From IMG/VR virus record IMGVR_UViG_3300049740_002155: DNA of 64,000 nucleotides. The stretch is one strand, 5' to 3'. Under the pieces are notes generated by a model. The model made no database searches. It saw only the letters and a list, made by a program, of their open reading frames with translations, and was not told the DNA's origin. The position numbers were made by a program, and so were the translations under genes. Below are positions 10,667-63,911 of this stretch, piece after piece. This stretch comes from a virus. Taxonomy: Duplodnaviria > Caudoviricetes. The stretch's first letter is position 1, and every line of letters starts with the position of its first letter.

Positions 10667-10792
10667 TGTTGCACGAAGCATTTTGGTATATAGGAATTGC
10701 TTTTACTTTTCTTATATTTTTGGTAGCAATTCTTCATTATTTTGATGATGAAGATGAATGATTTTTTTTGAACTTTATATATATTTATCGTT

Positions 10793-11089
10793 ATGGATAT
10801 AAATGAACAATTCAAATCACTAATGGAAAATTCCACGGAAATCAATGAAGCAGAAGAGGTTGACATCAACTATATGGAAAGAAAACCTCGTCTTTCTATT
10901 AAATATTGGGAAAAACTTTTCAAAGGAAAAGCAGAAACTGCGTTTGATGGAATTCATGGGTATATAGTTTTCATAAAAGTATCTGCAATACAAAAAAGAC
11001 ATGAGTCCACAACATTTGAATACTTGACAAAAGGTCCTGAGTATCGTTGGATTGAATTTGATGTCAGACACATTAAGATTGGATTCTAA
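10793..11089 (+). CDS. hypothetical protein
   Basis: ATATTTAT-N4-ATG start; INE motifs near N-terminus. Confidence 0.6.
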   Translation: MDINEQFKSLMENSTEINEAEEVDINYMERKPRLSIKYWEKLFKGKAETAFDGIHGYIVFIKVSAIQKRHESTTFEYLTKGPEYRWIEFDVRHIKIGF

Positions 11090-11421
11090 TGAATAAAACA
11101 CAATTAAAGCAAGTTATAGAAGAAGAGTTCCAAAAACTTCTTAAAGAATACAAATACGAATTGTATCATAAGTCTTTTACTGCGGCTGCTCAAGAAGCAC
11201 GTAAAGTTGCAGAAAAGAAAGGATTTGAAATAGACGAAGAAAATTGGACAACTGAAGTTGCATTTGGTGGAAAGTATAAACGAGCAAGACCAAGTGTTGG
11301 AAAAAGTAATTCATTTACTGTCGCATTAATCAAGAACGGAAAACCACAACGCAAGCATTTACACTTTCAGGTATACGGAATGGAAAGTGGAAACTTTGAA
11401 TTAAACGCATACGTTTCTTAA
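11089..11421 (+). CDS. hypothetical protein with MNKTQLKQVIEEE leader
   Basis: 110 aa, TAATG coupling. Confidence 0.65.
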   Translation: MNKTQLKQVIEEEFQKLLKEYKYELYHKSFTAAAQEARKVAEKKGFEIDEENWTTEVAFGGKYKRARPSVGKSNSFTVALIKNGKPQRKHLHFQVYGMESGNFELNAYVS

Positions 11422-11636
11422 TGTCTAAACGATGCAAAGCAAGAAATCAAGTAATTGCTGAACTTGATTTTATTGAAGGACTTACTCACAATCTTCGTGA
11501 AGTAGTAGATAATGCAGATTGGCCAAAAGAAGTTTGGGAAGCAAAAGCAAAAGTATTAAAAGACGTTCAGAATACAATCGTAGACTTTTTAAAAGATATT
11601 GACGAAGAAAACGAAAAAAAAAATAAAAAAAGTTGA
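11421..11636 (+). CDS. hypothetical protein
   Basis: 71 aa, TAATG coupling. Confidence 0.55.
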   Translation: MSKRCKARNQVIAELDFIEGLTHNLREVVDNADWPKEVWEAKAKVLKDVQNTIVDFLKDIDEENEKKNKKS

Positions 11637-11698
11637 CTTTTTTTGAAATAAAGTCATAATATACATATATATATCTTATATATCACCATCATCTCCCA

Positions 11699-11738
11699 GA
11701 GTTGCCATTGAAATTCGTTTTAGTGGCAACTCTTTTTT
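11699..11738 (+). terminator. intrinsic terminator-like hairpin
   Basis: GAGTTGCCATTGAAA-TTCG-TTTTAGTGGCAACTC followed by a T run. Confidence 0.75.
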
Positions 11739-11799
11739 ATAAACAAAATTAGTGTTAAATGTATTGATAATTTGTTTATATTCATATATATTTATTGGT

Positions 11800-12294
11800 A
11801 TGAATAAAAGTAAACTGGTTGAAATAATTCGTGGTATTGTCGCAGAAGAATGGGACAAAGATGTTGAAGTAAAATCAACAGGTGAACACGCAGACAAAAC
11901 CATAACACAAATCAAAAAAGAAATGGAAGCATTGAAAGGCAAAAAACCTTTTAATCGTGAACAATTTTCAGAACTAATGTTTGCTCTTCGTGCAAAGCAA
12001 GGATGGAAAAAAGGCAAAGGTGCAACAGGAACAACAGAAGGTATTACAATGAAGAAATCAGAATTAAAAGAACTCGTCAAAGAAGAACTCAATAAAATTC
12101 AAGAAAACAAAGCATTAAGTGTTGAAGATGCATACTATAAGTTTTCTGATGGAGTGTATGGTTTGTTAAATATGGAACATGAAAATGGTGGATACGATAA
12201 CGATAAGTTCATTAAAAAGACGTTTCGTTCTGCAAAAAAATTGTTGATGGACTTAGAAATGCATCTAAATAAAAACTACGAAGGGTGGGAGTAA
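11800..12294 (+). CDS. two-module protein with MNKSKL and internal MKKSELK leaders
   Basis: ATATTTAT-N4-ATG at 11800; second leader MKKSELKELVKEE at 12049. Confidence 0.7.
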   Translation: MNKSKLVEIIRGIVAEEWDKDVEVKSTGEHADKTITQIKKEMEALKGKKPFNREQFSELMFALRAKQGWKKGKGATGTTEGITMKKSELKELVKEELNKIQENKALSVEDAYYKFSDGVYGLLNMEHENGGYDNDKFIKKTFRSAKKLLMDLEMHLNKNYEGWE

Positions 12295-14623: not shown

Positions 14624-14664
14624 GACTTGACTTTTTATAAGATTTTTGGTAGTATATAAACATA

Positions 14665-14778: not shown

Positions 14779-14790
14779 TCAACTATTATT

Positions 14791-15003: not shown

Positions 15004-15017
15004 TTTACATACACTAT

Positions 15018-22388: not shown

Positions 22389-23336
22389 TTAATTGGGAAA
22401 AAATTTATTTAGTTGGTTAGTTAGAAACTCTGTATTTGCAGTTCTTTGATCGTCAGAAATAATCTTGTCAGTAAATGGCAATTTTAATTTATTTACATTG
22501 TTTCTGATACAACAATCACGATATCTAAAGTGATCAAGGTAGAAATTTTCTTTTAATCGTTTTCCATTGGAATGCTTGAATTCGTGGATGTAATAATTGG
22601 TGCTAGTTGAAATGTATTTTTTTGCTGATAAATAAGGTTGTAGAACAACAAATCTTTCTTTCATATTATACAAATTATTTACACGAAATGAAATCTGAGT
22701 TTCAGCATGAGTTGCTATCACTCCGGCTACTTGATTATATGATCCATATAAAATACTAGCAAATCCATTCATATTGTCACCCACAAAAACTACTCTGGTA
22801 TAAGGTTCAATCATTTTTTTGATGTATCTTGATGTTTCAAGAAATGTATCACCAATTTGGTTTATCTTGTTTAAAAACCAACCATTATTGGGGTCTCTTA
22901 TTGTAATGATATCTGCATTTGGAAATTTTGATTTTGTGGGAATTCTTGAATCAAATACATTAGGTTCTCTATCAAGAAGTCTTTCAATTTCAGATACATT
23001 TATATAAACAGAATACTCGTTTAGTGTATGATCGTAATTAGCAAGATAATCAAGTAAACTTTGATTGAATTCATCATAAGACTGATGATAATATTTTGAG
23101 TATGACTCTGAATACCAATTATTTTCAACTGCAACATCGTAATTTTCTTTGTTCTTGGGAGCATAATCCTCTTTTAACTTAGAAATTCCATTATCAAGAA
23201 TTGTTTTTTCATCCTGAGTATACAACAACTCAATTTCATTAAACGTAGTGTTCGGAATGTTGTTTTTAAATAACACTATCAAATTTTTAGGAGTTCTATT
23301 TTTACACAATTTGACTACATTTATATGCTCTTCCAT
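22389..23336 (-). CDS. alpha/beta-hydrolase-like protein with degenerate nucleophile motif
   Basis: VVFVGDNMNGFASILYG aligns by eye with VCCVGNSAGGFASLLFG of 29572; ATATTTAT-N4-ATG start. Confidence 0.5.
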   Translation of the reverse strand: MEEHINVVKLCKNRTPKNLIVLFKNNIPNTTFNEIELLYTQDEKTILDNGISKLKEDYAPKNKENYDVAVENNWYSESYSKYYHQSYDEFNQSLLDYLANYDHTLNEYSVYINVSEIERLLDREPNVFDSRIPTKSKFPNADIITIRDPNNGWFLNKINQIGDTFLETSRYIKKMIEPYTRVVFVGDNMNGFASILYGSYNQVAGVIATHAETQISFRVNNLYNMKERFVVLQPYLSAKKYISTSTNYYIHEFKHSNGKRLKENFYLDHFRYRDCCIRNNVNKLKLPFTDKIISDDQRTANTEFLTNQLNKFFPN

Positions 23337-23419
23337 TTATATAAATATCATTTTTGTTGCAAATCATATAAAAACAAATTAATATAATATTATAAAATAA
23401 ATTTAACAAAGGAAAAAAC

Positions 23420-23878: not shown

Positions 23879-24547
23879 TTAAAGAATCATATATTGAACA
23901 TACTCTTGATTAGGATAATTTTCAAGTTCAATATATTTCCCTGTTTGTGGTTCAAATATTAACCACTTACCGGGTGTAAACACAAGATTAACCATGTGAA
24001 GTCCACCGGTGCCTGGTATTCCACCAAATTCATTAACTTGACGAACAACAACAACTGCTACTCCCATTTCAAGTTTATCACCACTTTTATATGCACTTAC
24101 ACCCATAAGTGATTTGTATAGCATTGCGAAGTTATCACAATCTAATGCTTGGTGATTACTTACTATGCCTGGTTGAATTCCTGCTTCAAACATAAGTTTT
24201 TTAAACCAATTGTTAAATTTGCGAAAATGAAAATAATCAACTTGACGATAACGAGTATCAAGCATCACAACTTTAAAGTCAGTAGGAACTTTAGTTGGAA
24301 CCCAGTTTGCTGATTTTTGCATTGAAAAGTGCTGACCAATAGTATGACGATCAATATAATTTTTAGGTTTAAACGAATTTTCAATTTTTTCACCTTGCAT
24401 AACTGGTATGTCAATTAACTCACGCATATCAGTTTTTGTTTTACAACTCGAACCTGCCATAAAAACAATCGTTACCCCTATCACTACAAATGCTAAACAA
24501 CTCCAACAAATACTTTTTAATTTATTAGTAATATTATATTTCATCAT
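23879..24547 (-). CDS. membrane/lipoprotein cysteine hydrolase, paralog of 17059
   Basis: LDCDNFA, HMVNLVF, FEPQT; hydrophobic N-terminus; SD AGAGGAG. Confidence 0.6.
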   Translation of the reverse strand: MMKYNITNKLKSICWSCLAFVVIGVTIVFMAGSSCKTKTDMRELIDIPVMQGEKIENSFKPKNYIDRHTIGQHFSMQKSANWVPTKVPTDFKVVMLDTRYRQVDYFHFRKFNNWFKKLMFEAGIQPGIVSNHQALDCDNFAMLYKSLMGVSAYKSGDKLEMGVAVVVVRQVNEFGGIPGTGGLHMVNLVFTPGKWLIFEPQTGKYIELENYPNQEYVQYMIL

Positions 24548-24627
24548 CAAATCTCCTCTTATATAAATATGAGTTTTTATAATATTTTATAGTTGCGGTA
24601 TCAGTTTACTTACTTTAGTATAAGAAA

Positions 24628-27702: not shown

Positions 27703-27734
27703 GAGGGGAGCAGATAATCTGCTCCCCTTTTTTT
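27703..27734 (+). terminator. intrinsic terminator
   Basis: AGGGGAGCAG-ATAAT-CTGCTCCCCT then T run. Confidence 0.85.
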
Positions 27735-27842
27735 ATATTAGATATTTATATTGTATGAATTGCTTTGATGATGCTATTGATTACATTGAATAAAACATTG
27801 AATCTTTGTTGATTCAAATACAAACTTGATATATATTATTAT

Positions 27843-29500: not shown

Positions 29501-29571
29501 GGATTGTGGGAGGGGCCAAAGCTACACCCAAAATAGACTTCATTTTTCTTGATAAATTTATATTTATAAAA

Positions 29572-30279
29572 ATGGACAATTACGAAAATGCAATGCAATA
29601 TATTAACGAACAAGAAGCAACTGATATATCATATGTTAAAGTAGGTGATAATAACAAAAAACTGATCGTTTCCTTTGCAAGCAATGAACATCGTGGATTT
29701 GAAAGAAAAACCTCATTGATGACCTTGAAATACGAACACAATAACTTTGATGTATTGTATTTAAGAAATCAGTTTAAATGGTATCTCGATGGTTTAAACG
29801 GAATTGGAAAAAACATTAATTGTACCATTGAGTTTCTTAAAAAAGAATTTAGTAAATACGATAAAGTTTGTTGTGTAGGTAATAGTGCAGGAGGTTTTGC
29901 AAGTTTATTATTTGGAAGTTTGCTGAATGCAAATAAAGTAATTACTGTTAGTGCTCAAACTGATGTGCAATATTGTGCTGATAATTTACCCAATGATGCA
30001 TTCGGTAAAAGTAACTTAATTAAAATATCCGAGAAATGTCCGATTACTTGGAATAAATACAATAAAATAGCAAGTGTATTAAACAATGCTATTACATATC
30101 ATGTATATTATAGAGGTGATGCGTTTTGGAATAAACGGAATGAATTGAGAAATAGTCCTGAGCCTAAGGTTCTTCACGGAGACTATCACTACGACCTAAT
30201 CAAACATTGTCCGAGTGTAAGTAAATTTGATTCGAAGCCGGATGTTCATCCACTTATAGAAAAGTTCCTCGAAGAATAA
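29572..30279 (+). CDS. alpha/beta-hydrolase fold protein
   Basis: GNSAGG nucleophile elbow; ATATTTAT-N4-ATG start. Confidence 0.65.
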   Translation: MDNYENAMQYINEQEATDISYVKVGDNNKKLIVSFASNEHRGFERKTSLMTLKYEHNNFDVLYLRNQFKWYLDGLNGIGKNINCTIEFLKKEFSKYDKVCCVGNSAGGFASLLFGSLLNANKVITVSAQTDVQYCADNLPNDAFGKSNLIKISEKCPITWNKYNKIASVLNNAITYHVYYRGDAFWNKRNELRNSPEPKVLHGDYHYDLIKHCPSVSKFDSKPDVHPLIEKFLEE

Positions 30280-31764: not shown

Positions 31765-31824
31765 TCATTAGTATATATAATAGTATAATTTCTAGTAAAA
31801 TTAGTTTTTATAATATTTATAGGT

Positions 31825-31944
31825 ATGCGTAACTATATAACACCAGTACAACAGCCATTACTAAATAAAAAAACACTAAAAGTAAGTAAAAAAGCACTAT
31901 TAATAACAAGTGTACTAGTAGTAGCAGTATTGTGTAGTGGATAA
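31825..31944 (+). CDS. 39-aa basic/hydrophobic micropeptide
   Basis: ATATTTAT-N4-ATG; ...KKALLITSVLVVAVLCSG. Confidence 0.5.
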   Translation: MRNYITPVQQPLLNKKTLKVSKKALLITSVLVVAVLCSG

Positions 31945-32269
31945 TATAGGTATAATACTACTTAATACGATACTAATTTTTATTTTGCTTTATTCGGTTA
32001 GTGTTATAGTAGCATTGGTATATTAGTAGAACTACTAACATAAGTGGCTAACTTTTTTTTGTAACCAGAAAGCGAAACCGCCGAAAAACCGCCGGGCAGA
32101 CCTACTCTTGTGTGGATGACCATTTTTTTGTCAGATCTTTACTATACAAAAAACGTGACATCTAAAAAATGTTTTTTTGCCCGAAAAACCAAAAAATTAA
32201 AATGATAAATTTTTTTCTGAGGAATTTACTATGTGATTATTCAAGAAAAAGTAAATATTTATATACTAT

Positions 32270-32500
32270 ATGAAAAAATCGGAAAGTATAAATGAAGATT
32301 ATGTAATGGTATTGCACAATCCCGAACAAAATACCTATGACTACTTAATATATCGTGTATTAGACATCAGTTATATCAATGACAACAAAGTAGTAAACAT
32401 ACAACATCGCACCAAGAACAATCAATTAAACCGTCTTATTATGCCGTATCATATTTTCTTGGGACTTATAGAAGAAGATATTCTAACCAGATTACAATAA
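32270..32500 (+). CDS. hypothetical protein
   Basis: 76 aa, ATATTTAT-N7-ATG. Confidence 0.55.
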   Translation: MKKSESINEDYVMVLHNPEQNTYDYLIYRVLDISYINDNKVVNIQHRTKNNQLNRLIMPYHIFLGLIEEDILTRLQ

Positions 32501-32897: not shown

Positions 32898-32932
32898 GTT
32901 AAAAAAACTAATCTTACTTCATATATATATTT

Positions 32933-33253
32933 ATGATAAATTTACTTGGATTCGGTAAAAACAAACCCAAAGGCATCAAAGTGACGATTGAGTATTGTCC
33001 TAAGAATGTTACTTTACCGTATAAAGTAAAAAAGTTAATAAATCAAGCATCATTACAAGTTCCTTCTTCTAAAGTTGATAATTCTAAGAAAGATCCTTTT
33101 AATTTTGCCGAAAAGACTGTGCGTGTTGGTGAGTTTCTAAATGAATACCAAGTTCAGCATTTAGTTGATAAAGCACGTGAAAACACAAATGAGTTTGAAA
33201 GTATCGAGATAGTAGAAAGAGAATCATCAGGACCTGAAATTCTTATTGATTGA
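32933..33253 (+). CDS. hypothetical protein, paralog family member 1 (distant)
   Basis: VRVGEFL motif resembling VSVGDR in neighbours. Confidence 0.55.
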   Translation: MINLLGFGKNKPKGIKVTIEYCPKNVTLPYKVKKLINQASLQVPSSKVDNSKKDPFNFAEKTVRVGEFLNEYQVQHLVDKARENTNEFESIEIVERESSGPEILID

Positions 33254-39369: not shown

Positions 39370-39678
39370 ATGTCTCGCAAAAATAATTCAGACATCATTG
39401 AGATGGAAGGTATAGTTACAAAACTTCTTCCTGGAACAATGTTCGATGTAGAATTTCAACAAGGAGACGCAAAGGTTATGTTACTTTGTTCACTTGCCGG
39501 AAAACTTAAACAACATTTTATTAAGTTGACGGTGGGTGACAAAGTTCTTGTTGAAATAAGCAAATATGATATGTCAAAAGGTAGAATTACATATCGTCTT
39601 AAAAACAAAACAAGTTACAATACATCAAATAAATCTGTACCAATCAAAAGTGGTGGTGTGGGTAAGAAAAAGAAATAG
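39370..39678 (+). CDS. infA: translation initiation factor IF-1 with basic tail
   Basis: IEMEGIV...LP..MF.V, L.GKL....I....GDKV.VEIS.YD.SKGRITYR. Confidence 0.9.
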   Translation: MSRKNNSDIIEMEGIVTKLLPGTMFDVEFQQGDAKVMLLCSLAGKLKQHFIKLTVGDKVLVEISKYDMSKGRITYRLKNKTSYNTSNKSVPIKSGGVGKKKK

Positions 39679-40739: not shown

Positions 40740-40829
40740 GGTTTGACTTTATTTGTAATGTTTGTATATTATACTATTATTATTGATTACACAATTAAAT
40801 AATTGTTGGTTTTTTCTATATTTATATAT

Positions 40830-41222
40830 ATGTTTACAAAATTAATTGCCAAGTTGCTGAAGAAAAAGTTATATAAATCTAAAATAACTATTCTTGGAGA
40901 TGATTTCGTTGCTACACACGATAGTAATTCTTTACTAGAATCATTAAAGTGGACATTACACGGAATCCATGAGGCTAATGCAACTCAACCAGAACATCAT
41001 AAAAAAAGCATTTCAACTACCAATGGTATTTATGGTCATATATGTGAATTTAGATTATTTAATGTAACGAGATCGTCAATTACGATATGTGGATATAAAA
41101 CACCTAAAAACGAAGATATTCTATTTATGACAGAGCAAATGGTTTATATTCCACAAAAAATTCTCAATACATTGCGAGAACAAGATGCTCACTTACAAGA
41201 CTTGGAAATAATGACTAAATAA
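40830..41222 (+). CDS. hypothetical protein
   Basis: ATATTTAT-N4-ATG start. Confidence 0.55.
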   Translation: MFTKLIAKLLKKKLYKSKITILGDDFVATHDSNSLLESLKWTLHGIHEANATQPEHHKKSISTTNGIYGHICEFRLFNVTRSSITICGYKTPKNEDILFMTEQMVYIPQKILNTLREQDAHLQDLEIMTK

Positions 41223-42577: not shown

Positions 42578-43990
<1,413 letters not shown>

Positions 43991-45241: not shown

Positions 45242-45347
45242 AAGTATTTTAGATTATATTTATATAAAGATAATGCTCAACGGAGATTGTCTAGAATGCT
45301 CAAACGAGATTCAAACAAAACTAACAAAATAAAAAGAGGAATAAAAA

Positions 45348-47279
45348 ATGGCTAAAGTAATTGGCATTGATTTAGGTACATCGAACAGTTGTGTTGCGGT
45401 GGTAGAAGCAGGAGAACCAAAAGTGATAACCAACTCAGAGGGAGCAAGAACTACCCCAAGTATAGTTGGATTTGCAAAAGACGGAGAAAGACTTGTAGGT
45501 CAATCCGCAAAAAGACAAGCAGTCACTAATCCAGAGAATACAATTTTTTCTGCGAAACGTTTAATCGGAAGAAAATACAAGGAAGTAAAAAACGAAGTTA
45601 AAAATCTTCCCTATGAAGTTGTCTCGGGTAAAAACGGAGATGCTTATATTAAGTGTAAAGAAGGTGACGAAGAAAAAGAATATGCACCTGAATTCATTTC
45701 AAGTATCATTCTGAGTAAACTTAAAGCAGATGCAGAAGCATATCTTGGTGAGGAGGTAAAACAAGCAGTTGTTACAGTACCTGCTTACTTTAACGATTCA
45801 CAAAGACAAGCAACTAAAGATGCAGGTGAAATCGCAGGACTTGAAGTGTTGCGTATCGTCAACGAACCAACGGCTGCATCTCTTGCCTATGGATTAGAAA
45901 AAAAGAACGAAGAAACAATCGCAGTTTATGACCTCGGTGGTGGAACTTATGATGTTTCTATTTTAGAAATCGGAGACGGAGTATTTGAAGTTAAATCTAC
46001 CAACGGTGACACTCAATTGGGTGGTGACAATTGGGATGAAACTCTTATTCAATATTTGTTAGATGAATTTAAAAAAGATTCTGGAATTGATTTAAGTGGT
46101 GACGGACAAGCAATGCAACGTCTTAAAGAAGAAGCTGAAAAAGCAAAAGTTGCTTTATCGTCAAGTGCTTCCACCACAATTAATCTTCCGTTTATTACTG
46201 CGGATGCAAGTGGTCCTAAGCATTTGAATGTAGAAGTTACTCGTTCAAAGTTTGAACAAATTTGTGATCCTCTTTATACTCGCACAAAAGAACCATTTGA
46301 AAAATGTCTTGATGATGCGGGTATCACAATGAGTGAAGTTAAAAATCTAATTCTCGTTGGTGGGATGACTCGTAGTCCTAAAGTTGTTGAGATAGCAAAA
46401 GAACTTGCAGGTGGTAATGATCCACACCAAGGAGTTAATCCAGATGAGGTAGTTGCTTTGGGTGCGGCTATTCAAGGTGCTATATTAGCAGGAGACGAGG
46501 GTGTAAGTGATGTTTTGTTGCTTGATGTAACTCCTCTTACTCTTGGAATAGAAACTGCCGGTGGAGTGTCTACACCGATGATTGAACGCAACACTACAAT
46601 TCCAACAAAAAAGTCGCAAATATTTACAACCGCAGGTGATAATCAACCAGCAGTTGATATTGTAATTCTTCAAGGAGAACGAGCAATGTCTGTTGATAAT
46701 AAAAAACTTGGTACATTCAAGTTAGATGGAATTCAACCTGCACCAAGAGGTACTCCACAAATTGAAGTTACATTTGATATTGATGCAAATGGTATTCTTA
46801 ATGTAAGTGCTACTGATAAGGGTACAGGTAAAGATCAAAAGATTACAATTAGTGATTCTAGTGGTCTTGACAAAGAAGAAGTTGAACGCATGAAAGCAGA
46901 TGCTGAAAAGTATGCTGACGAAGATAAACAAAAGAAAGAAGGAATCGAACTTCGTAATCAAGTAGATTCCACCGTTTATCAAATTGAAAAAATTCTTGAG
47001 GAAAACAAAGAAAAGATTCCTGAAGAAGAATCAAAGCAAATAAGTGAACTTCTTGAAGATGTTAAAAAGCAACTTGAGAATACTTCACTTGAAAGTGATA
47101 AATTGAAAGAACTTAATTCTTCTTTGATGGAACAACTCCAAAAACTTGCTCCACATATGCAAGCAGAGCAAGAAAGTGCTACTCCGGAAGACGAACCATC
47201 TACTACTGAGTCCGAAGATGTAGTGGATGCTGACTTTGAAGTTGTTGATGAAGAAGAAAAGGAAGAAACTAAAAAGTAG
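45348..47279 (+). CDS. dnaK: DnaK/Hsp70 chaperone
   Basis: [38 protein letters not shown]; SD AGAGG. Confidence 0.97.
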
Positions 47280-47300: not shown

Positions 47301-47335
47301 TAAAAAAGGTGGAATTTATTTCCACCTTTTTTTTA
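47301..47335. terminator. bidirectional intrinsic terminator
   Basis: AAAAAAGGTGGAA-TTTA-TTCCACCTTTTTTT. Confidence 0.85.
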
Positions 47336-47367
47336 TAAAAACAGTTAGTTGCTTTATATTTATATGC

Positions 47368-47556
47368 GTGAAGAATGGTGAAGTAATTACAAGAATAAAA
47401 AAACGAGCCTATCAACTTAGGCATTTTCGCAAAGAAGGATTTGATGACTCACACTTGGATTCTAAGTGCATAATACACGAAATCAAGTTTCTTTTTAATA
47501 TGCTATCTAAAAAAGAGCAAAGTGATATTCTAAATAAACCATGGCTAGACGATTAA
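47368..47556 (+). CDS. hypothetical protein
   Basis: ATATTTAT-N4-GTG start. Confidence 0.55.
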   Translation: MKNGEVITRIKKRAYQLRHFRKEGFDDSHLDSKCIIHEIKFLFNMLSKKEQSDILNKPWLDD

Positions 47557-48067: not shown

Positions 48068-48553
48068 TTGATGAATTGTGATATGAACTTTATTTACTTT
48101 ATATGTCCCGAAACTCCCCAATTTGCAAAATATTGTGAGGGGTTCTATAACTACTTAACATATGGATACAAAAATTGGACACGTGACAGATATGTATCAT
48201 CCAACCCAAAGGATAAAGACGGAAGATCGAGAACTTTGATTTCAAAAAATGCTCCTGTTTCGGATGAAATGAAAACATCAGATTGGGTATTTGACAGAAT
48301 ATATCAAAAAGTAATTACAAGTGATTGTTACACTCACACATATCAACAGATTACAAAAGAAGAAATAGAATCAAGTAAGCAGATAGTATTTATTACTTCA
48401 AACTCTAAACCAAGATCAATTCCATCGTATTTATATACAAAACACAATTCTGTAACTGTTTGGAAACTATCTAATATACACAAACACTCCGATGCAAAGT
48501 ACTCATTACTTGAGTCTAAGTTAAGAGGTATGGCCAAACCTTATCAGTCGTAA
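48068..48553 (+). CDS. hypothetical protein
   Basis: 161 aa, converges on 48544 ORF with overlapping ends. Confidence 0.5.
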   Translation: MMNCDMNFIYFICPETPQFAKYCEGFYNYLTYGYKNWTRDRYVSSNPKDKDGRSRTLISKNAPVSDEMKTSDWVFDRIYQKVITSDCYTHTYQQITKEEIESSKQIVFITSNSKPRSIPSYLYTKHNSVTVWKLSNIHKHSDAKYSLLESKLRGMAKPYQS

Positions 48554-52136: not shown

Positions 52137-52861
52137 TAATCGGTTGTTTGAATTTCAACCAAGTAATAACTGCTACGGAAGTCACCGACTTCAAACTCAA
52201 TGCTTGCAATTCCCTTGGAACTAACATTGAGGACACTCTTTTCAGAGTCACTGTTTGCATTAAGAATTTCCTTAAAATACTTTGAGGAAAAACTAATAGG
52301 ATCTGTGATTGTACTCTTACCTTCGGTGATCGCATTCAAAGAAACACGATTGCTATTGATAGTAGAATAACCAATTACCAACTGAATTCCGTCCTTAGAC
52401 GGAACGATGGTAAAGGTATCACAATCACTCAATGCACTTGCTGAACGAACAAACTTCTTTGCGAAGTCGTTGCTAAAAGGAATTTGCAGATCAAAATCTG
52501 GCAAGTCCTTCAATGCAGGTACATTAGGAATTACTGCTAAATCAGCAAGCATGAAGTTAACACTTGTTGTGTCATCTGAAACATTAATGCTGACATTCTT
52601 TTCGTTCTTTTCAACGACCTCAACATTAATTTCGTCACCAACGACTGACAACAACTGCTTCAACTTTGCAGTATCATAAACACCAACTTCACCTTCTGTG
52701 AGTTCAAAGTCCTTTGCAGATACTTTGCCGAGAACACTTTTGTCATCGGTAATGAAGGTGGTTTCGCAAACGTTGTCTCCGTTAGTTTCCCACTTAACTG
52801 ATTCTACGTTACCATTAAGATTGTAACGAGAAATGAATTGTAGTACTTTATCTTTTTTCAT
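52136..52861 (-). CDS. sliding clamp (gp45-like)
   Basis: 241 aa, coupled to clamp loader, beta-rich pattern; TTGACA-17-TAATAT 7 nt before ATG. Confidence 0.75.
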   Translation of the reverse strand: MKKDKVLQFISRYNLNGNVESVKWETNGDNVCETTFITDDKSVLGKVSAKDFELTEGEVGVYDTAKLKQLLSVVGDEINVEVVEKNEKNVSINVSDDTTSVNFMLADLAVIPNVPALKDLPDFDLQIPFSNDFAKKFVRSASALSDCDTFTIVPSKDGIQLVIGYSTINSNRVSLNAITEGKSTITDPISFSSKYFKEILNANSDSEKSVLNVSSKGIASIEFEVGDFRSSYYLVEIQTTD

Positions 52862-52906
52862 AGTTTATATATTATTATTTTAATTGTTAATTGTCAATAT
52901 TTGTTT

Positions 52907-56135: not shown

Positions 56136-57024
56136 AACTAAAAAACTTATTTGAGTTAACACGAAGCTCGTCTTGCTCACAATAATCGGGTATTTCATAT
56201 TCACCTTTTTTGCGAAAAACCATAATATATTCGTGTATTTTACTTGTGTATCTTTTGCTTGCTACTTTCGCACATTGAACATAAGCAAACGGACTAAGAT
56301 TCTTCATAATAATTGTATCGTGGTGAATCATTCCTTCGTTTACAAATGCAGTAATCAAGTCCGAATGAAAACTACGAAGACCACTACCTGTCATATCTCT
56401 CCAATCTGAAACAACCCATACGCAAAATGCTCCTGGTTTCAAAACACGATTTATATTTTTACCACACTTTTGAATTTGAGTCATAAAGTCTTCGTATGTT
56501 TCACATTCACTTAATTGATTTTTTGCAGTTTCGTATTTTTCAAGATTGTGATACGGAGGACAAGTAAATACCAAATCAGCAGTTTCATTTCGTGTATATA
56601 ACATCTCTGTTCCATCACAATTAAAAAGTTTGGGTGATACCTTGAACTTTTTAAAATGTTTCATACAACGATCATATGTTTGCTTTGATACTTCGTAACC
56701 TTGATAGTTACGACCAAGTTTACTTGCAACCATAGCACGTGTAGCACGACCTGAAAATGGGTCTACGATTACACTTCCACGCATACTCCAATAACGAAGA
56801 ATTTGCTCTGCTAATCCTGCGTGAAACTCACTGAATCTAAGACCAGGAAGATTCTCTGCATCTTTACTTCTTTTTGTTTCACGAATTCCATCATCAAGAT
56901 ATGCTTCCGGCCATTGTTCACGGTGATCACGACTTGGTTCTAATACACTCAAAGGCAACCAACCGAATTGTTCGTCAATTCTACAATCTTTTCTGATTGG
57001 AAGTATTTGATTATAGTTTGCCAT
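56128..57024 (-). CDS. N4/N6 DNA methyltransferase
   Basis: VDPFSGRAT (motif I) then FTCPPY (motif IV). Confidence 0.85.
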   Translation of the reverse strand: MANYNQILPIRKDCRIDEQFGWLPLSVLEPSRDHREQWPEAYLDDGIRETKRSKDAENLPGLRFSEFHAGLAEQILRYWSMRGSVIVDPFSGRATRAMVASKLGRNYQGYEVSKQTYDRCMKHFKKFKVSPKLFNCDGTEMLYTRNETADLVFTCPPYHNLEKYETAKNQLSECETYEDFMTQIQKCGKNINRVLKPGAFCVWVVSDWRDMTGSGLRSFHSDLITAFVNEGMIHHDTIIMKNLSPFAYVQCAKVASKRYTSKIHEYIMVFRKKGEYEIPDYCEQDELRVNSNKFFSYE

Positions 57025-59531
57025 TAGAAAGCAAAAAACTTTTGAGCAGTTGCAAGATTCTCACTTGCAAAGTCCCAACTAAGTGCATCGTAAAAGTCAC
57101 GCAACTTTCCTTCAAGTTCTCGTTCAAACAATTTATCTTTATCTGCATACTTCTCAATAAACTCCATAAGTTGTGGTGGGTCTTCATAACCACGAAACGC
57201 AAGTGCATCTAAACCAAGTTCATTGTTCTTCAAATAAATCCACTTAATTTTTTCACCATTACGAATAGGTTCACTTTGTATTTTAAACTTTTTGAGAAAC
57301 TGATTGTGAATGATACTTGATTTAACGTGTGCGGGTGTACTTTTTGCACACTCACCCATAACTGCACCTTTATCCATCATCTTTACATACTTGGATATAT
57401 TTTTAACTGCACTCGTCTTTGCAATATCATCAACCGACTCGTTCTTAACTTGCTTTTTGAGTGTAACAATCTTTTCATCAATTTCTTCTTTCGGTACATC
57501 CTTCAAAATATCTTTGAGGATTTCCGTCATAAACTTACGAAACCGAGTTGGAAAACTACTACGCACAACATCAAGACCTTTAACTTCCAATTCGTCACAA
57601 GTAACACCGTTGTTGTTGATAATCCATTGTGCATATCGTTTCTTTGCCAACCACATACTTGCTTTGGCAATCACTTCTTGTTTAATGTCATAACGATGCT
57701 CTTCAATGTTGAAGAAACGTTTTGCCATAACATCATAACTTTTATTGATGAAGTTTTGTACATCACCCGCAACTTCAAGAATTGCAGTTGCCATTTCGTC
57801 ATCGTTCTTTACATCAACGTGAGGCATCGTTTTTTCTACGATAGGCAATGCTGAAAAGAAAACCGAGTCGGTATCAATGTATATACAATGATCTTCTGTA
57901 TCACCAAGTGTTTTATTGTAATAGTGATTCGCAATCTTGCGACTAAACTTAATCACGGACACACCTGTGGTCGTAACTGCTTCTGCATTGTCCACATCAT
58001 AAAACCGAAAAATAGGCAAACCAAGAACACCATACAACGAATTAAGAAGAATCTTTTGCACGTGCTGACGTCTTTTATAGAACACATACTTTGCATCGTC
58101 ACCTGAGTTACCATACTCTTTCATTTTGTTCTTGAACTCAACACGTTGGTTGAACCATTGATCAAGAATCGCAGGAATAAGTCCGACCTTATTCTTGGTA
58201 TACATAACTCCGTTGCTACTGATAGAAAGATTGTTATCTTTTAGAAATGCCTTGAACTCATCTGCTGAATATGTTTCTCCACGAAATCCAACTTCGGTTT
58301 GTTCTCCGTCACAAAACTTCTCGGGACTCCAATTATCAACAACACCCACTTTGGTTTCTGGTGAAATATTCGTGGACATAATAATAGATGGATACAGAGA
58401 AGTTAAATCCAAGTCAAACACCCACTTGTATTTGCCAGGTGTCGGTGCAGCCACATATGCTCCACTAAACTTCTTGGATTCGTCACCTTTAATTTCATTG
58501 AATCGTTCACGACCATTTGGGTCTTTATTTGGTGCGACAAGATTGTGTCTGCGAAGATAAGTAAGCAATGCACCTTCAAGATAACGAGACGAAAATAAAA
58601 TGTCTTCATACGGAACGTGTCCAACGTGACAAATGCTACGAGTCAATTCAATGAGTTCCATCTTTCTATCAATCTCAACAACAATCTTTACGTCGTTCAA
58701 ATTGTATTCAATGAACTTCTCAATATCTTGTGAAAACAAATCATCAAGATTACCTTCGTATTCAACTTTACCAATACCAACTTCTTTACGACCAATTGCA
58801 TCCAAACGATAACTTGGTTCAACACTAAATGTAAAGTTCTTGTATAACGCAAGATAATCCAAGCAACTAACACCTGCAATAACAATACGTTTCTTGAACT
58901 GATGATAATATGCGTGTCCAATAGGACTCAAACGATTTGCATCACCTTGCCCTAAAACTCTTGCGAGTCTACGATACAAATAAGGAACGTCAAAGTAATC
59001 AATGTTCCAACCGGTCAATATTGTCGGACTAATCTCTTGATAAAAATCAAGAAAGTGTTCAAGCATTGCTCGTTCTGTATCATAAGAATAAACCGAAACT
59101 TCATCATTAGAATAGTCGGTGATTTTATCTTCCTTGTCTAAAACAAGAACCACATAGTTATTAGAACAACTATCGTGATACGCAATGGAAGTAATAGGAT
59201 TGTTTGCTCGTTCTGTGTCAGGCAACTCTCCTTCCATACTAACCTCAATATCGAAGTTTAATACACAATGACCTGTACTTGGTTCATCGTCATCTTCGTA
59301 CAAATCAATTAAATTACGTGTTTCAATCGGAACATCTGATTCAAACAAACCTTCGTCTTCATAACGATACTTAGTTACCTTTTCTAACTTGTCACCATAC
59401 ATACTACGATACATTCCGTTCGGAGACTTTCTGTATGCGTATGGTTTGTTTTTGTAGGTTACTAAACCTTGTTTATCATCCCACAAATAAATTGTGTTGT
59501 TCTTTTTGCTTACGAATATATTTTGGTACAT
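57024..59531 (-). CDS. family B DNA polymerase (gp43-like)
   Basis: exo FDIE, GWNIDYFD, YNLND; pol DLTSLYPS, KILLNSLYG, YIDTDS; TTGACT-17-TACGAT 8 nt before ATG. Confidence 0.97.
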   Translation of the reverse strand: MYQNIFVSKKNNTIYLWDDKQGLVTYKNKPYAYRKSPNGMYRSMYGDKLEKVTKYRYEDEGLFESDVPIETRNLIDLYEDDDEPSTGHCVLNFDIEVSMEGELPDTERANNPITSIAYHDSCSNNYVVLVLDKEDKITDYSNDEVSVYSYDTERAMLEHFLDFYQEISPTILTGWNIDYFDVPYLYRRLARVLGQGDANRLSPIGHAYYHQFKKRIVIAGVSCLDYLALYKNFTFSVEPSYRLDAIGRKEVGIGKVEYEGNLDDLFSQDIEKFIEYNLNDVKIVVEIDRKMELIELTRSICHVGHVPYEDILFSSRYLEGALLTYLRRHNLVAPNKDPNGRERFNEIKGDESKKFSGAYVAAPTPGKYKWVFDLDLTSLYPSIIMSTNISPETKVGVVDNWSPEKFCDGEQTEVGFRGETYSADEFKAFLKDNNLSISSNGVMYTKNKVGLIPAILDQWFNQRVEFKNKMKEYGNSGDDAKYVFYKRRQHVQKILLNSLYGVLGLPIFRFYDVDNAEAVTTTGVSVIKFSRKIANHYYNKTLGDTEDHCIYIDTDSVFFSALPIVEKTMPHVDVKNDDEMATAILEVAGDVQNFINKSYDVMAKRFFNIEEHRYDIKQEVIAKASMWLAKKRYAQWIINNNGVTCDELEVKGLDVVRSSFPTRFRKFMTEILKDILKDVPKEEIDEKIVTLKKQVKNESVDDIAKTSAVKNISKYVKMMDKGAVMGECAKSTPAHVKSSIIHNQFLKKFKIQSEPIRNGEKIKWIYLKNNELGLDALAFRGYEDPPQLMEFIEKYADKDKLFERELEGKLRDFYDALSWDFASENLATAQKFFAF

Positions 59532-59564
59532 TGAATACTATCGTATCTTAATTTATATAAAAAG

Positions 59565-60092
59565 TCAAGCACCTGTGCTTCCAAAACCACCGTTTCCTCG
59601 GTCTGTCTCTGACAATTCTTCTACGACTTCAAATTCAACTTTATGCGTTTCTGCAATTACAAGTTGTGCAATGCGTTCACCTTTTTTATATATCTTCTCC
59701 ATATTAACATTTGTTAACATAGGAACTTGGGTACAATGACCTTTAATTTTTGCATAAATATCTTCTGGTTGAGTAATATACTTAAAACGAATAAGTAACT
59801 CTCCACGATAACCTGCATCAATCAATCCAATTGAATTCGCAAGCATAAGATTTTTATTGCTGATACTACTTCTTGGAAAAATATTAGTATGATAAACTTT
59901 ATCATCAACACACGGTTCTATATACAAGTCTGTGTGGTATTGTATATAATCTATTCGTGACCAAGCCTGTGCTTCTTCGTCATATTCACCAGAAATTGCT
60001 GGATGTGATGATGCAACTAAATCATAACCCACATCGTATTGCGTTAAATTTTTTGGTACAATAGTTCCAGTATTTTTTATCTTAATTTTCAT
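59565..60092 (-). CDS. dut: trimeric dUTPase
   Basis: GYDL, PRSS, GLIDAGYRGE, RIAQL, RG.GGFGSTG. Confidence 0.95.
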   Translation of the reverse strand: MKIKIKNTGTIVPKNLTQYDVGYDLVASSHPAISGEYDEEAQAWSRIDYIQYHTDLYIEPCVDDKVYHTNIFPRSSISNKNLMLANSIGLIDAGYRGELLIRFKYITQPEDIYAKIKGHCTQVPMLTNVNMEKIYKKGERIAQLVIAETHKVEFEVVEELSETDRGNGGFGSTGA

Positions 60093-60558: not shown

Positions 60559-60895
60559 CTGGGTAATATTTGTTTATTAATTTTACGATAATATCTCCGT
60601 GACAAGGTTTGGGTTTGCACCAGCATCCTAATCGTTTTCCTTTTAATCCTTTAAGTGCTTCTAATAGTTTAGGAGACGATTCTAAATATTCCTCGTAACT
60701 TTGTATTGCTTCTGATTTGCTTCTGACTAAATACTTGGCAAGAGTTCCTTTTTTTGAGGAATACGGATTACCCCACAAAGAAGGCCTTCCAATATAAACA
60801 TCATATTCGGACTTTTTGCAATGTACTATTTGCGTTGTATTTGTTGTCGTTTCTAAGTTAGAATAAAATGATAAATTAACTGCTTTTTTTGTCAT
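60536..60895 (-). CDS. DUF4326-like protein
   Basis: VYIGRPS.WGNP, LKGKRLGCWCKPKPCHGD. Confidence 0.8.
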   Translation of the reverse strand: MTKKAVNLSFYSNLETTTNTTQIVHCKKSEYDVYIGRPSLWGNPYSSKKGTLAKYLVRSKSEAIQSYEEYLESSPKLLEALKGLKGKRLGCWCKPKPCHGDIIVKLINKYYPDENIISS

Positions 60896-61217
60896 CCAAA
60901 TCTATATCAGTATCTTTATCAAAATTTTCTATGTCGGTGAATAATTCTTTTACAAAATCAAACTCTAATTGCTGATTTTGGAATTCTGGTTGATTTACAT
61001 CTGCGTAACTTGTATTTGTTGGATTATTATTTTCATCAACAAATTCAAGGTGACCATCAAAATGAAATCCAGCACCTCTTAAAAACAATTCAAATGCATT
61101 TAATACTTCTCCAAGAGTTTCATCTGCGGTTGTATGTCTTGTTCTTGAAACAAGATTATCATCAGAATCTCTCCAAGTATAATCAAATGTGAATTTTGCT
61201 GTATTATCGTATTTCAT
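60876..61217 (-). CDS. hypothetical phage protein
   Basis: VLNAFELFLRGAGF motif; ATATTTAT-N6-ATG. Confidence 0.6.
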   Translation of the reverse strand: MKYDNTAKFTFDYTWRDSDDNLVSRTRHTTADETLGEVLNAFELFLRGAGFHFDGHLEFVDENNNPTNTSYADVNQPEFQNQQLEFDFVKELFTDIENFDKDTDIDLDDKKSS

Positions 61218-61259
61218 ATATACATAAATATATACACAATAATACCAAACGTAAAGTCT

Positions 61260-61469
61260 TTATTTTTTAGGAATCGTATGAATTGTAGATGCCTTTATTA
61301 TTAATTGCAAATATAATTGCAAAAATGCTACACCTAACCAATTCCATAATGTATATTCAATGTTCAATTGAAAAACAATATTGACCGACCAAATAAATCC
61401 AAGTGGTAAAATAATTAGACCAAGAATACCTGCAAGAAATGTTGCTAATTTAGTTGTATCTATTTCCAT
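61260..61469 (-). CDS. small two-TM membrane protein
   Basis: 69 aa, hydrophobic. Confidence 0.6.
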   Translation of the reverse strand: MEIDTTKLATFLAGILGLIILPLGFIWSVNIVFQLNIEYTLWNWLGVAFLQLYLQLIIKASTIHTIPKK

Positions 61470-61474
61470 CTGTA

Positions 61475-61765
61475 TTACTTTTTTATTTCACAAATTTTTT
61501 CATGCAACAATTTTACATCATCGCAAGTCATCCCAAATATTGCTTCAACCCCTTCGACCATTTTTGTAAAGTTTATGAGTGTACCAATTTCTCTTGGGTC
61601 ACCTTCGGATTCTGTTATTTTGTATTTTAGGTCCAGTGTATCATCCTGAACTTCTTCAAGTTTACACAATGTCATATGCTCGTACAACGCAACAAAGTCA
61701 TCAACGGAGCAAGTCGTTAAAAAGTCAAGAGACTCTTGTTCAATTCTATTTTCTTCGGAATCCAT
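61475..61765 (-). CDS. acidic hypothetical protein
   Basis: 96-aa ORF. Confidence 0.55.
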   Translation of the reverse strand: MDSEENRIEQESLDFLTTCSVDDFVALYEHMTLCKLEEVQDDTLDLKYKITESEGDPREIGTLINFTKMVEGVEAIFGMTCDDVKLLHEKICEIKK

Positions 61766-61823
61766 TTTTATTTTCTAGTTAAGGTTATGTATTTATATAA
61801 ATATATATTATAATCAACAAATG

Positions 61824-63050
61824 TCAATTCTTTTTCCAAATCCAAATTGGTTCTGCGAATGCAACATCTTTATTTTCTTCGGTAATTTCTTTGAGGTCTT
61901 CCGAGAAATATTCACTCTTGGCATTACCTGCTCCACCTGAATTAAATCGTTTCGTCATTTCCATTCCAACGCAACCAAGATATTCAAGACCTTGTGATTT
62001 AATAAAGTCATTCATTGGATTTGTGATTTCAACATAGTCGTTGATAGGAGCATTGAATACATCTGCAATGTTGATGGCAAGAATACCATTCTTCTTTATT
62101 GCCGGAATTATCTTACCGAGGGTGGTGTGAAGAAACTTCTCGTTCCAATCATCTATCTTTTTATATCGTACCCAAGATTGCGTATCATCTTCTGAATACT
62201 TTTCTGTATTAAAATAAGGTGGACTTGTAAACACCGTATCAAAGTAATTTTCATATTGGGAGTAATCTACGTCTTCGGCAGGACTTTCTATTAAGTCTGC
62301 TTTTCTATTCTGTTCAAAAAAGGTAGAATACTTTTCATAGAACTGAATTTGCTTTTGGTAATTAGGATGGTTAAGTGTATTGGGATCAATTCCAACATAA
62401 TGCTCTGTGGTTTCACCTGTATAAAATCCCGCTAATCTATCTCCCCAACCTGCACTAAAGTCTAATACGTTCTTGCTTTGAAAGTGATCATAAAATGCTT
62501 TTGCTACTGCTGGTTTGAATTGTGATGCGACATACTTACGAAGGGTCGTAGCAACACGAAGAGTATTAACATCAACACGATTAAGAACTTTATCCAATGT
62601 CCAATAAGCACGAACAATTGTTTTGATTCCTTTCACCGTCTGCCAAGTTTTCCAACCACTTGGTGTTCTTGTCCAGTCTACTTTCCAACGAGTTTCTACA
62701 TGAAATGGATTAGAAGCATTGTTACCCGAGTTGTTTCTTTTCAATAGAAACTGAGAATCTTTGTAGTTAAGGTGGTAGTTGCTTTTTCTTTCATTGCGAG
62801 GAAACCACTTTTTTTCTACAAGCACATCATTGTGCTTTATTCCTTTTAACTTGTTCAAACTATCAAGAGTTTGCTTATCCGTAATCTCGGGTAAAGGAGC
62901 AGGATATGTGTGTAATACTTTAGCAAGTTCTTCTACAACATCTTCTTTATCATACTTTTGCATGATATCTTTCCATTCATCTTCTTCAATTAGAAGGTAT
63001 GGTTTCATGTTGTAGAACTTTTTAAAATGTTCTTTTAAGTCAACACACAT
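61824..63050 (-). CDS. N4/N6 DNA methyltransferase-like protein
   Basis: VLDFSAGWGDRLAG (motif I), FTSPPYFNTEKY (motif IV). Confidence 0.85.
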   Translation of the reverse strand: MCVDLKEHFKKFYNMKPYLLIEEDEWKDIMQKYDKEDVVEELAKVLHTYPAPLPEITDKQTLDSLNKLKGIKHNDVLVEKKWFPRNERKSNYHLNYKDSQFLLKRNNSGNNASNPFHVETRWKVDWTRTPSGWKTWQTVKGIKTIVRAYWTLDKVLNRVDVNTLRVATTLRKYVASQFKPAVAKAFYDHFQSKNVLDFSAGWGDRLAGFYTGETTEHYVGIDPNTLNHPNYQKQIQFYEKYSTFFEQNRKADLIESPAEDVDYSQYENYFDTVFTSPPYFNTEKYSEDDTQSWVRYKKIDDWNEKFLHTTLGKIIPAIKKNGILAINIADVFNAPINDYVEITNPMNDFIKSQGLEYLGCVGMEMTKRFNSGGAGNAKSEYFSEDLKEITEENKDVAFAEPIWIWKKN

Positions 63051-63872
63051 TTAGTCAGAGTTTTCAATTTTATTTTGAGTAGACGTGACATCTGACTCCT
63101 TCAGTATTGATTCGGTTATCTCTTCAGGTTCGTCTTGGTGATCTGTGATTATAGTTTCGGAAAAACTTCCACTTGAATTTTTATCAGTACCCTGTTGTGC
63201 TTTTTTTAATTTATTTTCGTTGTGTGCTTTTAGTTTCTGTGTAATATAGTCATCAACTTCATCGTTGTTGCCACCTGGCATACCATTTACACTTTCTCCA
63301 TTGGCTGCTCTGATTATCGCTTGTTGAGATAAACCATCAGAGGTTTGTGCTCGTTTATTCATTTCAGGATACTGATCACCATATCGTGTTCTATCTACTA
63401 CTAAATCCTGTGGGGTGTTTTGTTTGGGTTTTATGTCGTTGGTTTTGTTTTTTGAATCTACTATCTGTACATTAGTTTGCTCTACAACTAAATTTGAGAT
63501 TGGATTCTTTTCAACTGACTTACTTTCTTCATTGATTGGTTCACTCTTTTTACTCAAGAGATCAGCAATTTCTTCTTTGGATACTTCGGATTTAGTAGAA
63601 TCGTTTGATTTAGTTATTATGTCATTTGAAGTAACTGATATAGTATCAAACTCAGAACCATCTTTTATTCTTTCTTTTGTTGACTGCTCAAGTTTTTTTT
63701 GAAACATTGACAAAAGTCCAGATGTATCGTTGAAACTTTTTTCATACTTTTCTTTGTCTGAGTTATGCTGTTGTTGTGCGTGTTTCATTGCATCTTGCTC
63801 AACGGAACTCGTATGCTCATTTTTATTTTGAGCAACTTTTTCAAAGTTTTGATCTAGGTTTTCAAATGACAT
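63051..63872 (-). CDS. acidic low-complexity hypothetical protein
   Basis: 273 aa; ATATTTAT-N5-ATG. Confidence 0.55.
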   Translation of the reverse strand: MSFENLDQNFEKVAQNKNEHTSSVEQDAMKHAQQQHNSDKEKYEKSFNDTSGLLSMFQKKLEQSTKERIKDGSEFDTISVTSNDIITKSNDSTKSEVSKEEIADLLSKKSEPINEESKSVEKNPISNLVVEQTNVQIVDSKNKTNDIKPKQNTPQDLVVDRTRYGDQYPEMNKRAQTSDGLSQQAIIRAANGESVNGMPGGNNDEVDDYITQKLKAHNENKLKKAQQGTDKNSSGSFSETIITDHQDEPEEITESILKESDVTSTQNKIENSD

Positions 63873-63911
63873 GGTATATAAATATGTATATACAAATCAA
63901 ATAATTTAGAA

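Follow-up and report, generated by a model that had tools for sequence, protein, structure and literature searches.

The window analysed here, by which we mean the whole 64-kb stretch from virus record IMGVR_UViG_3300049740_002155, carries an AT-rich 8-bp box, ATATTTAT, at short and nearly constant distances before a series of start codons. It has a G+C content of 33%, no tRNA genes, and a gene content that includes rIIA, rIIB, a family-B DNA polymerase (PolB), a clamp loader, a DNA ligase, a dUTPase-like protein and methyltransferases, as well as DnaK, DnaJ, a ClpP-like protease, two tandem glutamate dehydrogenases and IF-1. Judged by rIIA, rIIB, PolB and the clamp loader, the phage is an uncultured marine distant relative of T4. 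The closest cultured match of its PolB is that of Microcystis phage Mel-JY01 (47% identity), followed by T4-like cyanophages (~32%), and a near-identity search of the window among cultured phages gave no match. The host looks, from the phage sequence, like a bacterium with promoters of the TTGACA/TATAAT type and low use of Shine-Dalgarno (SD) sequences. Close relatives of the window are present in IMG/VR. We compared it with the 170-kb genome G001 (IMGVR_UViG_3300046758_000611), which is 80-94% identical at the nucleotide level across window positions 23.9-63 kb, with the complete distant relatives G003 (253 kb) and G004 (214 kb), whose PolB is ~54% identical, and with two cultured phages, Mel-JY01 and Flavobacterium phage immuto.

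Position and specificity of the box

The window holds 24 copies of ATATTTAT, whereas dinucleotide shuffles held 11.6 ± 3.3 and none of 100 shuffles reached 24; 21 of the 24 copies are codirectional with the local genes. The initial annotation had reported that the box ends at set distances before start codons, and all 14 coordinates that it gave are correct, together with the spacings of 4, 5, 6 or 7 nt listed in Table 1 and the single longer-spaced case at 24547 (-), where AGAGGAG lies between box and start. Two of these starts are weak, as ATG 27755 opens only 12 codons and ATG 31825 only 39. The remaining 11 start-proximal sites head open reading frames (ORFs) of 62-808 codons, have ATG (10) or GTG (1) as start codon and carry an SD sequence in 0/11 cases. 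In an enrichment test without prior expectation, in which every 8-mer ending 3-8 nt before the ATG of an ORF of at least 60 codons was counted, ATATTTAT ranked first among all 8-mers, with 10/24 copies in start-proximal position compared with a background of 2.0% (binomial p = 1.5e-11). The distances between box and ATG were 4, 5, 6 and 7 nt in 6, 2, 1 and 1 cases, respectively, which is a sharp distribution.

This geometry is specific for the word itself. The control words TATAAATA, ATAAATAT, TTATTTAT and other words of the same composition, the reverse and the complement included, gave 0-1 matches each. Among the 24 single-base variants, the geometry was shared only by ATACTTAT, in a relative, and weakly by ATATATAT, while the other 22 remained at background, indicating that all eight positions of ATATTTAT are constrained. 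ATACTTAT ends 4-7 nt before a start in 6/10 cases in G001 (L085-L093), in 0/2 cases in the window and in 1/31 cases in G004. The base T before the box is present at only about half of the sites, and likewise the base A after it.

The same spike of spacings was found in G001, with 7, 6 and 1 copies at 4, 5 and 6 nt (14/74 copies, p = 2.6e-10), and in the distant relative G004 ATATTTAT was again the top 8-mer, with a spike at 4-5 nt. In G003, six copies are start-proximal and 29 are located 13-60 nt upstream of genes. The cultured phages have the box at larger distances: in Mel-JY01, 0/90 copies lie at 3-7 nt, but 30/90 at 8-60 nt before ORFs, compared with 9-16 for most control words, and in immuto the coding strand carries 30/34 copies, most of them 11-31 nt ahead of genes.

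Genes and starts associated with the box

A PHROG and Pfam search of the box genes of the window identified glutamate dehydrogenase only, plus weak matches. The Pfam domains of this enzyme (42578-43915) start at residue 56, as expected for a full-length glutamate dehydrogenase. The two glutamate dehydrogenase paralogues, 41215-42558 (-) and 42578-43915 (-), differ in that the upstream one has the arrangement box-N4-ATG and the downstream one ATATATAT-N4-ATG. For the 808-aa protein (48544-50970, -), we obtained only a weak match to Reprolysin-like zincins. At 32927-32935 (+), the box overlaps the ATG of ORF 32933-33253 by 2 nt, and a copy of ATATATAT 4 nt upstream may be the working element; in the G001 orthologue of this ORF, the box abuts the ATG directly.

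Evidence for a promoter function

Several observations point to transcription rather than translation as the process in which the box takes part. A terminator followed by the box occurs four times in the window compared with 0.14 expected, and six times compared with 0.42 expected in G001. At the tightest of these sites, 23-25 nt separate the T-run from the ATG, which leaves space for neither another promoter nor a leader. Divergent units headed by the box have intergenic gaps of 83-96 nt, and the box is absent from the 44 translationally coupled internal genes of the window. At orthologous sites from up to seven relatives, the box, the length of the spacer and the ATG are invariant, while the 20 nt further upstream (-14..-30 region) vary. 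At 61217, the entire block from box to ATG is identical in seven relatives, again with variable sequence in the 20 nt upstream. The initial annotation had noticed no TTGACA-like -35 element at the box sites, and this holds more generally: in six genomes, neither a -35-like nor an AACAA-type element was found upstream of the box and the information content of this region was nil. Inspection of the site alignments by eye also revealed no extended -10 TGn motif.

The box differs from the host-type promoters in the genes that it marks. In G001, it lies upstream of the late genes for baseplate hub, tail tube, tail sheath, prohead protease and large terminase, the last of these in leaderless geometry (5 nt). 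Similarly, immuto has the box ahead of the annotated terminase, sheath, tube, hub, spike and structural genes. The virion and packaging genes of the relatives (sheath, tube, hub, protease, terminase) have the box also at 11-100 nt upstream. Replication genes of the window, namely PolB, the dUTPase-like gene and the gene beside the clamp loader, have host-type promoters instead. From the function of the box genes in relatives, we infer that the box would be used late. Genes with a distant box often have an SD sequence (24547, dnaK, and the G001 genes for tube and hub), and those with a box that ends 4-7 nt before the start have none. These two geometries fit a transcription signal but not a translation signal.

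Matches to TTGACN-N16-18-TANNNT number 35 in the window compared with 14 in shuffles. G003 shows the opposite pattern, with Bacteroidetes-type TTTG-N18-21-TAnnTTTG promoters enriched (32 compared with 8 in shuffled sequence) and TTGACA depleted. The type of early promoter thus varies among relatives while the box stays constant, also in the Flavobacterium and Microcystis phages, which argues for a phage-borne specificity factor. The clade apparently spans host phyla, yet retains a single late box. Taken together, its specificity for strand and position, its location after terminators, the conserved spacing and the virion-gene context in relatives make the reading of ATATTTAT as a promoter, already proposed in the initial annotation, a well supported one at the level of sequence.

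Leaderless geometry and host-type promoters

A promoter that ends 4-9 nt before a start codon is expected to initiate transcription at the AUG or within ~3 nt of it. In computational analyses, a Pribnow box located 6-8 nt ahead of the start is accepted as the mark of a leaderless bacterial gene (PMC6028130), and the geometry was demonstrated experimentally in Deinococcus (PMC12340547). In the window, a start codon follows 13/36 matches to TTGACN-N16-18-TANNNT at a distance of 5-9 nt (p = 8e-10). Approximately 25 of roughly 60 unit-initial genes (~40%) have leaderless geometry, 11 of them with the box at 4-7 nt and 14 with a host-type promoter at 5-9 nt. Among the latter is PolB, where no indels were found in the promoter region of seven relatives and where the position of the start codon is fixed by the full-length alignment to Mel-JY01. 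Another host-type promoter precedes a 241-aa gene next to the clamp loader (phrog_168). Its product had no PDB or Pfam match and is, by its position, probably the sliding clamp. Because the geometry of the box equals that of the phage's own TTGACN-N17-TANNNT promoters, we consider it probable that many box genes are expressed from leaderless mRNAs, in agreement with the initial annotation.

An early promoter cassette, TTGACTTTTTATAA...TGGTAG, is repeated at 1568, 14627, 18313, 18667 and 19152 (+), 6-9 nt before starts. Some copies stand ahead of very short ORFs, and the cassette resembles a duplicated promoter module.

Table 1. Box sites, host-type promoters and translation factor gene in the window. 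Ranges with two dots give the whole site; spacers are counted from the end of the box or -10 element to the start codon.
Feature	Position (strand)	Spacer and start	Gene	Remarks
Box	10781-10788 (+); site 10781..10795	4 nt, ATG 10793	ORF 10793-11089, 98 aa	No family match
Box	11788..11802 (+)	4 nt, ATG 11800	ORF 11800-12294, 164 aa	No family match
Box	23348-23341 (-); site 23334..23348	4 nt, ATG 23336	ORF 22389-23336, 315 aa	Heads divergent pair, 83-nt gap
Box	24570-24563 (-); site 24545..24570	15 nt with AGAGGAG, ATG 24547		Leadered SD form; box, SD and start kept in G001
Terminator and box	Hairpin and T-run 27703-27733, box 27742-27749 (+)	5 nt, ATG 27755	12-codon ORF only	Next real gene from 27843
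Box	29560..29574 (+)	4 nt, ATG 29572	ORF 29572-30279, 235 aa	
Box	31813..31827 (+)	4 nt, ATG 31825	39-codon ORF	Weak case
Box	32255..32272 (+)	7 nt, ATG 32270	ORF 32270-32500, 76 aa	
Box	40818..40832 (+)	4 nt, ATG 40830	ORF 40830-41222, 130 aa	Divergent from dnaJ 39681-40739 (-)
Box	43913..43927 (-)	4 nt, ATG 43915	Glutamate dehydrogenase 42578-43915, 445 aa	Box and spacing kept in G001
Box	45256..45350 (+)	84 nt upstream, ATG 45348	dnaK	SD present; leadered form
Terminator and box	Terminator 47302-47335, box 47356-47363 (+)	4 nt, GTG 47368	ORF 47368-47556, 62 aa	
Terminator and two boxes	Terminator 51049-51020, boxes 51000-50993 and 50983-50976 (-)	5 nt, ATG 50970	808-aa protein 48544-50970	Conserved in G001, L009 and L010
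Box	61215..61231 (-)	6 nt, ATG 61217	ORF 60876-61217, 113 aa	
Box	63870..63885 (-)	5 nt, ATG 63872	ORF 63051-63872, 273 aa	
Host-type promoter	59529..59568 (-); TTGACT 59568-59563, 17 nt, TACGAT 59545-59540	8 nt, ATG 59531	PolB	
Host-type promoter	52859..52897 (-); TTGACA-N17-TAATAT	7 nt, ATG 52861	241-aa gene adjoining clamp loader	
Host-type promoters	Within 3911..4447 (+); TTGACA-N17-TATTAT and TTGACA-N17-TATAAT	7 nt, ATG 3947; 5 nt, ATG 4445		Both perfect, leaderless
IF-1 gene	39371-39678 (+)		IF-1, phage-encoded	Pfam eIF-1a/IF-1, E 3.8e-18; directly after ClpP-like gene; orthologue in G001

A candidate sigma factor in relatives

The initial annotation had attributed recognition of the box to a phage sigma factor and suggested looking for a gp55-like protein outside the window. 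Starting from a weak Sigma70_r2 signal, we found a conserved sigma-like protein of ~236-258 aa in G001, G002, G003, Mel-JY01 and immuto, with a family of 1535 cluster representatives at 50% identity. In the whole PDB, the best match of the family profile is T4 gp55, and this match is weak (E 0.21) but co-linear over 150 residues; aligned directly to gp55 with hhalign, the family reached an E value of 5e-4. A phmmer search of the protein against the PDB returned no meaningful match. An AlphaFold (AF2) model based on 76 sequences had a pLDDT of 91. The best 50 matches in a structure search with this model were all sigma factors, with gp55 (7d7c_F) in first place (Z 10.7, 117 residues aligned). 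Foldseek alone also returned sigma factors, but with weak E values of at least 0.01. Residues ~10-115 superpose on sigma2 domains at 2.2-2.9 Å over ~90 residues, and residues ~135-230 align with sigma4 of full-length sigma chains. The modelled structure thus provides, in the relatives, a candidate of the predicted kind, with T4 gp55 as its nearest structure.

In G001, TTGACA-N18-TATTAT-N6-ATG stands at the head of the operon of the sigma-like gene, and directly after this gene comes one with the arrangement box-N5-ATG. A host-type promoter on the sigma operon and a box on the next gene are the layout expected for a cascade from host sigma to phage sigma. A phage RNA polymerase was not detected in the relatives; the T7-type model in this search had no positive control. 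Members of the sigma-like family often end in aromatic tails (KFFEY, SGSFF, NFFNF) resembling the C-terminus of PolB, KFFAF (57024-57100, -), although the C-terminus of the G001 protein, SGEY, is less clear. A clamp-binding motif is common to the tails of gp43 and gp55 in T4.

Proposed mechanism

We consider it likely that ATATTTAT is the core of a T4-type late promoter that is read via a phage gp55-like sigma factor and fused to the start codon, giving rise to leaderless mRNAs. The box would act as a -10-like core, a single 8-bp AT element without -35, and its reader would be the host RNA polymerase carrying the phage-encoded sigma factor. Expression might follow a cascade in which the host sigma factor transcribes the gene of the phage sigma factor and the latter activates the box genes, as suggested by the host-type promoter of the sigma operon in G001. 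Where box and host-type promoters are located 4-9 nt before the start codon, as they are at many genes, the resulting mRNAs would be leaderless, while highly expressed virion genes of the relatives would use the same box with a leader of 15-100 nt, often containing an SD sequence.

A number of observations weigh against this interpretation. Searches for gp55 in five relatives with the T4 protein and with the phrog_234 and phrog_12791 HMMs gave 0 matches, and the sigma-like protein scored only 12.6-13.6 bits with Pfam Sigma70_r2, below the curated cut-off of 24. We therefore call the protein sigma-fold or gp55-like and do not file it as a member of the Pfam or the gp55 family. The Z score of 10.7 is in the range where helical folds may match through their arrangement alone, and the protein has a second, sigma4-like domain that is absent from gp55, yet the box is not accompanied by a -35 element. 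Furthermore, the gene is known from the relatives only. In the window itself, the box stands ahead of glutamate dehydrogenase, the 808-aa protein and unknowns, none of which has an assigned late function. With regard to the leaderless mRNAs, box spacings of 5-7 nt would leave a leader of 1-3 nt. At 53522 (-), three relatives (L009, L010 and L011) have an A-rich insertion of 17 nt between -10 element and ATG that gives a leaderless gene a short leader lacking an SD sequence. The arrangement can thus be altered in evolution and is not an obligatory one. Finally, the initial annotation had argued that the box sites offer no room for an SD sequence. This is true but does not discriminate: SD-like 4-mers at -18..-4 were found in just 9% of all window genes, which equals the frequency at control positions, and the 44 coupled genes lack them as well. 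Given this scarcity throughout the window, the absence of SD sequences at box genes proves little.

Alternative explanations

The alternative that fares best, although we judge it unlikely, is that the primary sigma factor of the host reads the box as a -10-only promoter, as is reported for middle and late promoters in Thermus phage phiYS40, and that the phage sigma-like protein serves another purpose. Preceded by T, the box contains TATATT, which matches TATAAT in five of six positions. Its distance of 7-8 nt from the ATG falls into the range found for this phage's host-type promoters (5-9 nt). In addition, -10-only promoters adjoining ORFs are functional in Deinococcus (PMC12340547), and the middle and late transcripts of Thermus phage phiYS40 are mostly leaderless (PMC3594737). 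However, the preceding T is found at only about half of the sites, and the constraint on 8/8 positions of the box, three of them beyond the putative hexamer, contrasts with the free variation of the phage's host-type -10 boxes. Flavobacterium and Microcystis phages moreover have the same box, as do genomes whose early promoters are of the Bacteroidetes type, with a different -7 consensus of the primary sigma factor, and the box marks virion genes whereas host-type promoters mark replication genes.

We give a slimmer chance to the possibility that the box functions at the RNA level within a longer transcript, either as an AU-rich enhancer for ribosome loading or S1 binding at SD-less starts or as a site at which an endoribonuclease of phage or host trims the transcript to the AUG. 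A translational role was the alternative given in the initial annotation. A short, fixed distance to the start would be typical of a ribosome-binding element too, and with SD sequences nearly absent, the phage needs another initiation signal. On the other hand, the box is also located 15-100 nt upstream of SD-bearing genes in the same genomes, is almost never start-proximal in Mel-JY01 and immuto, and occurs directly after terminators but not ahead of the 44 internal genes with translational coupling. An AU-rich enhancer of loose sequence would accommodate the exchange of single bases, which ATATTTAT does not. That an AT-rich composition and ATG-rich intergenic DNA give rise to the pattern by themselves can practically be dismissed: AT-rich words are indeed plentiful upstream of genes at 33% G+C, but the enrichment of p = 1.5e-11 was calculated with the window itself as background, the control words (reverse, complement and shuffled composition) gave 0-1 matches, and the pattern was replicated in four other genomes, so that the controls refute this explanation.

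Translation factors and implications

Besides the IF-1 gene of the window (Table 1), the relatives carry a gene for another translation-related protein, bS21, which is present in the complete genomes G003 and G004 and in Mel-JY01; IF-3 (PF00707) was not found in five relatives. A more far-reaching idea, which we regard as doubtful, is that leaderless, SD-free mRNAs constitute a deliberate, orthogonal expression channel of a widespread marine T4-like clade. Both temporal promoter classes would then be welded to the AUG, phage IF-1 and bS21 would retune host ribosomes to 5'-terminal AUGs, allowing phage messages to outcompete those of the host, and the two-domain sigma factor would be a fused functional equivalent of gp55 and gp33.

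If confirmed, the preferred reading of ATATTTAT as a sigma-dependent late promoter would supply both the late-promoter code and the probable sigma factor of a large clade of aquatic T4-like phages that has hardly been studied and whose cultured members infect Flavobacterium and Microcystis. Use of the box could also improve the calling of gene starts, as several starts in the window are otherwise mis-set to an upstream GTG or TTG. Wholesale leaderless expression would, if this holds true, extend beyond the phages of Actinobacteria and Thermus, and in a marine system of AT-rich sequence it could be coupled to a sigma factor of the phage. A connection to IF-1, bS21 and other translation factors carried by phages would also emerge.

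Comparison with known systems

A literature search on the ATATTTAT motif, Mel-JY01 or leaderless T4-like phages returned nothing relevant, and in phiKZ there are no leaderless transcripts. Promoters of Bacteroides and Flavobacterium have the -7 element TAnnTTTG. The sequence tATATTTA fits TAnnTTT, but the invariant final G is replaced by A and the TTTG partner at -33 is absent; the early promoters of the window differ from Bacteroidetes promoters as well, being of the TTGACA/TATAAT type.

In geometry, the box sites resemble those of the bacteria assigned to group C, in which a Pribnow-type box lies 6-8 nt before the first gene of an operon (GeneMarkS-2, PMC6028130; Deinococcus, PMC12340547). 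Leaderless genes account for 25-50% in group C bacteria, compared with ~40% of unit-initial genes here. Group C has been described for Actinobacteria and Deinococcus-Thermus, with rare cases among Proteobacteria and Firmicutes, whereas the present case concerns an AT-rich marine phage with two promoter classes.

For phiYS40, Sevostyanova and colleagues reportedly described in 2007 promoters that consist of a single -10-like element without -35 and that were transcribed in vitro by the host holoenzyme. Like the phage studied here, phiYS40 is a large myovirus, with middle and late transcripts that are mostly leaderless (PMC3594737). Its host, however, belongs to a leaderless-rich phylum and has a high-GC genome, and a phage sigma factor has not been implicated there. 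The early genes of phiYS40 are conventional, whereas in the present phage the host-type promoters have leaderless geometry too.

The closest parallel is provided by the late promoters of T4. Their consensus TATAAATA occupies positions -13..-6 (PMC1524935) and is read by gp55 together with gp33 and the gp45 sliding clamp (PMC1524935, PMC2988020, PMC7892883). With the modal spacing of 4 nt and the A of the ATG as +1, tATATTTA of the present phage likewise falls at -13..-6, with the last T of the box at -5. Six of eight bases agree in the same orientation and register, namely -13 (where T is present at about half of the sites), -12, -11, -10, -7 and -6, and the T at -13 is weakly conserved in T4-like phages too. 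The differences are TT instead of AA at -9/-8 and the additional conserved T at -5. The initial annotation had likened the box to an inverted T4 late box, but the reverse-complement likeness depends on the following A, which is present at about half of the sites, and ignores the essential first A of the box. The match of 6/8 in the T4 register makes the inverted reading unnecessary, and on the sequence the reverse-complement likeness is a by-product of a near-palindromic AT word. Shared with T4 late promoters is also the overall design, a lone, highly conserved 8-bp AT box at -10 without -35 element ahead of virion genes. T4 late mRNAs have a leader and an SD sequence, in contrast to the many starts of the present phage that coincide with the predicted +1. 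Gp55 is the nearest solved structure to the sigma2-fold protein of the relatives, which differs from it by an added sigma4-like domain and by escaping gp55 HMMs. T4 late transcription serves as the mechanistic model for the box (PMC2988020, PMC7892883), and phiYS40 as the precedent for a phage in which most of the middle and late transcripts lack a leader (PMC3594737).

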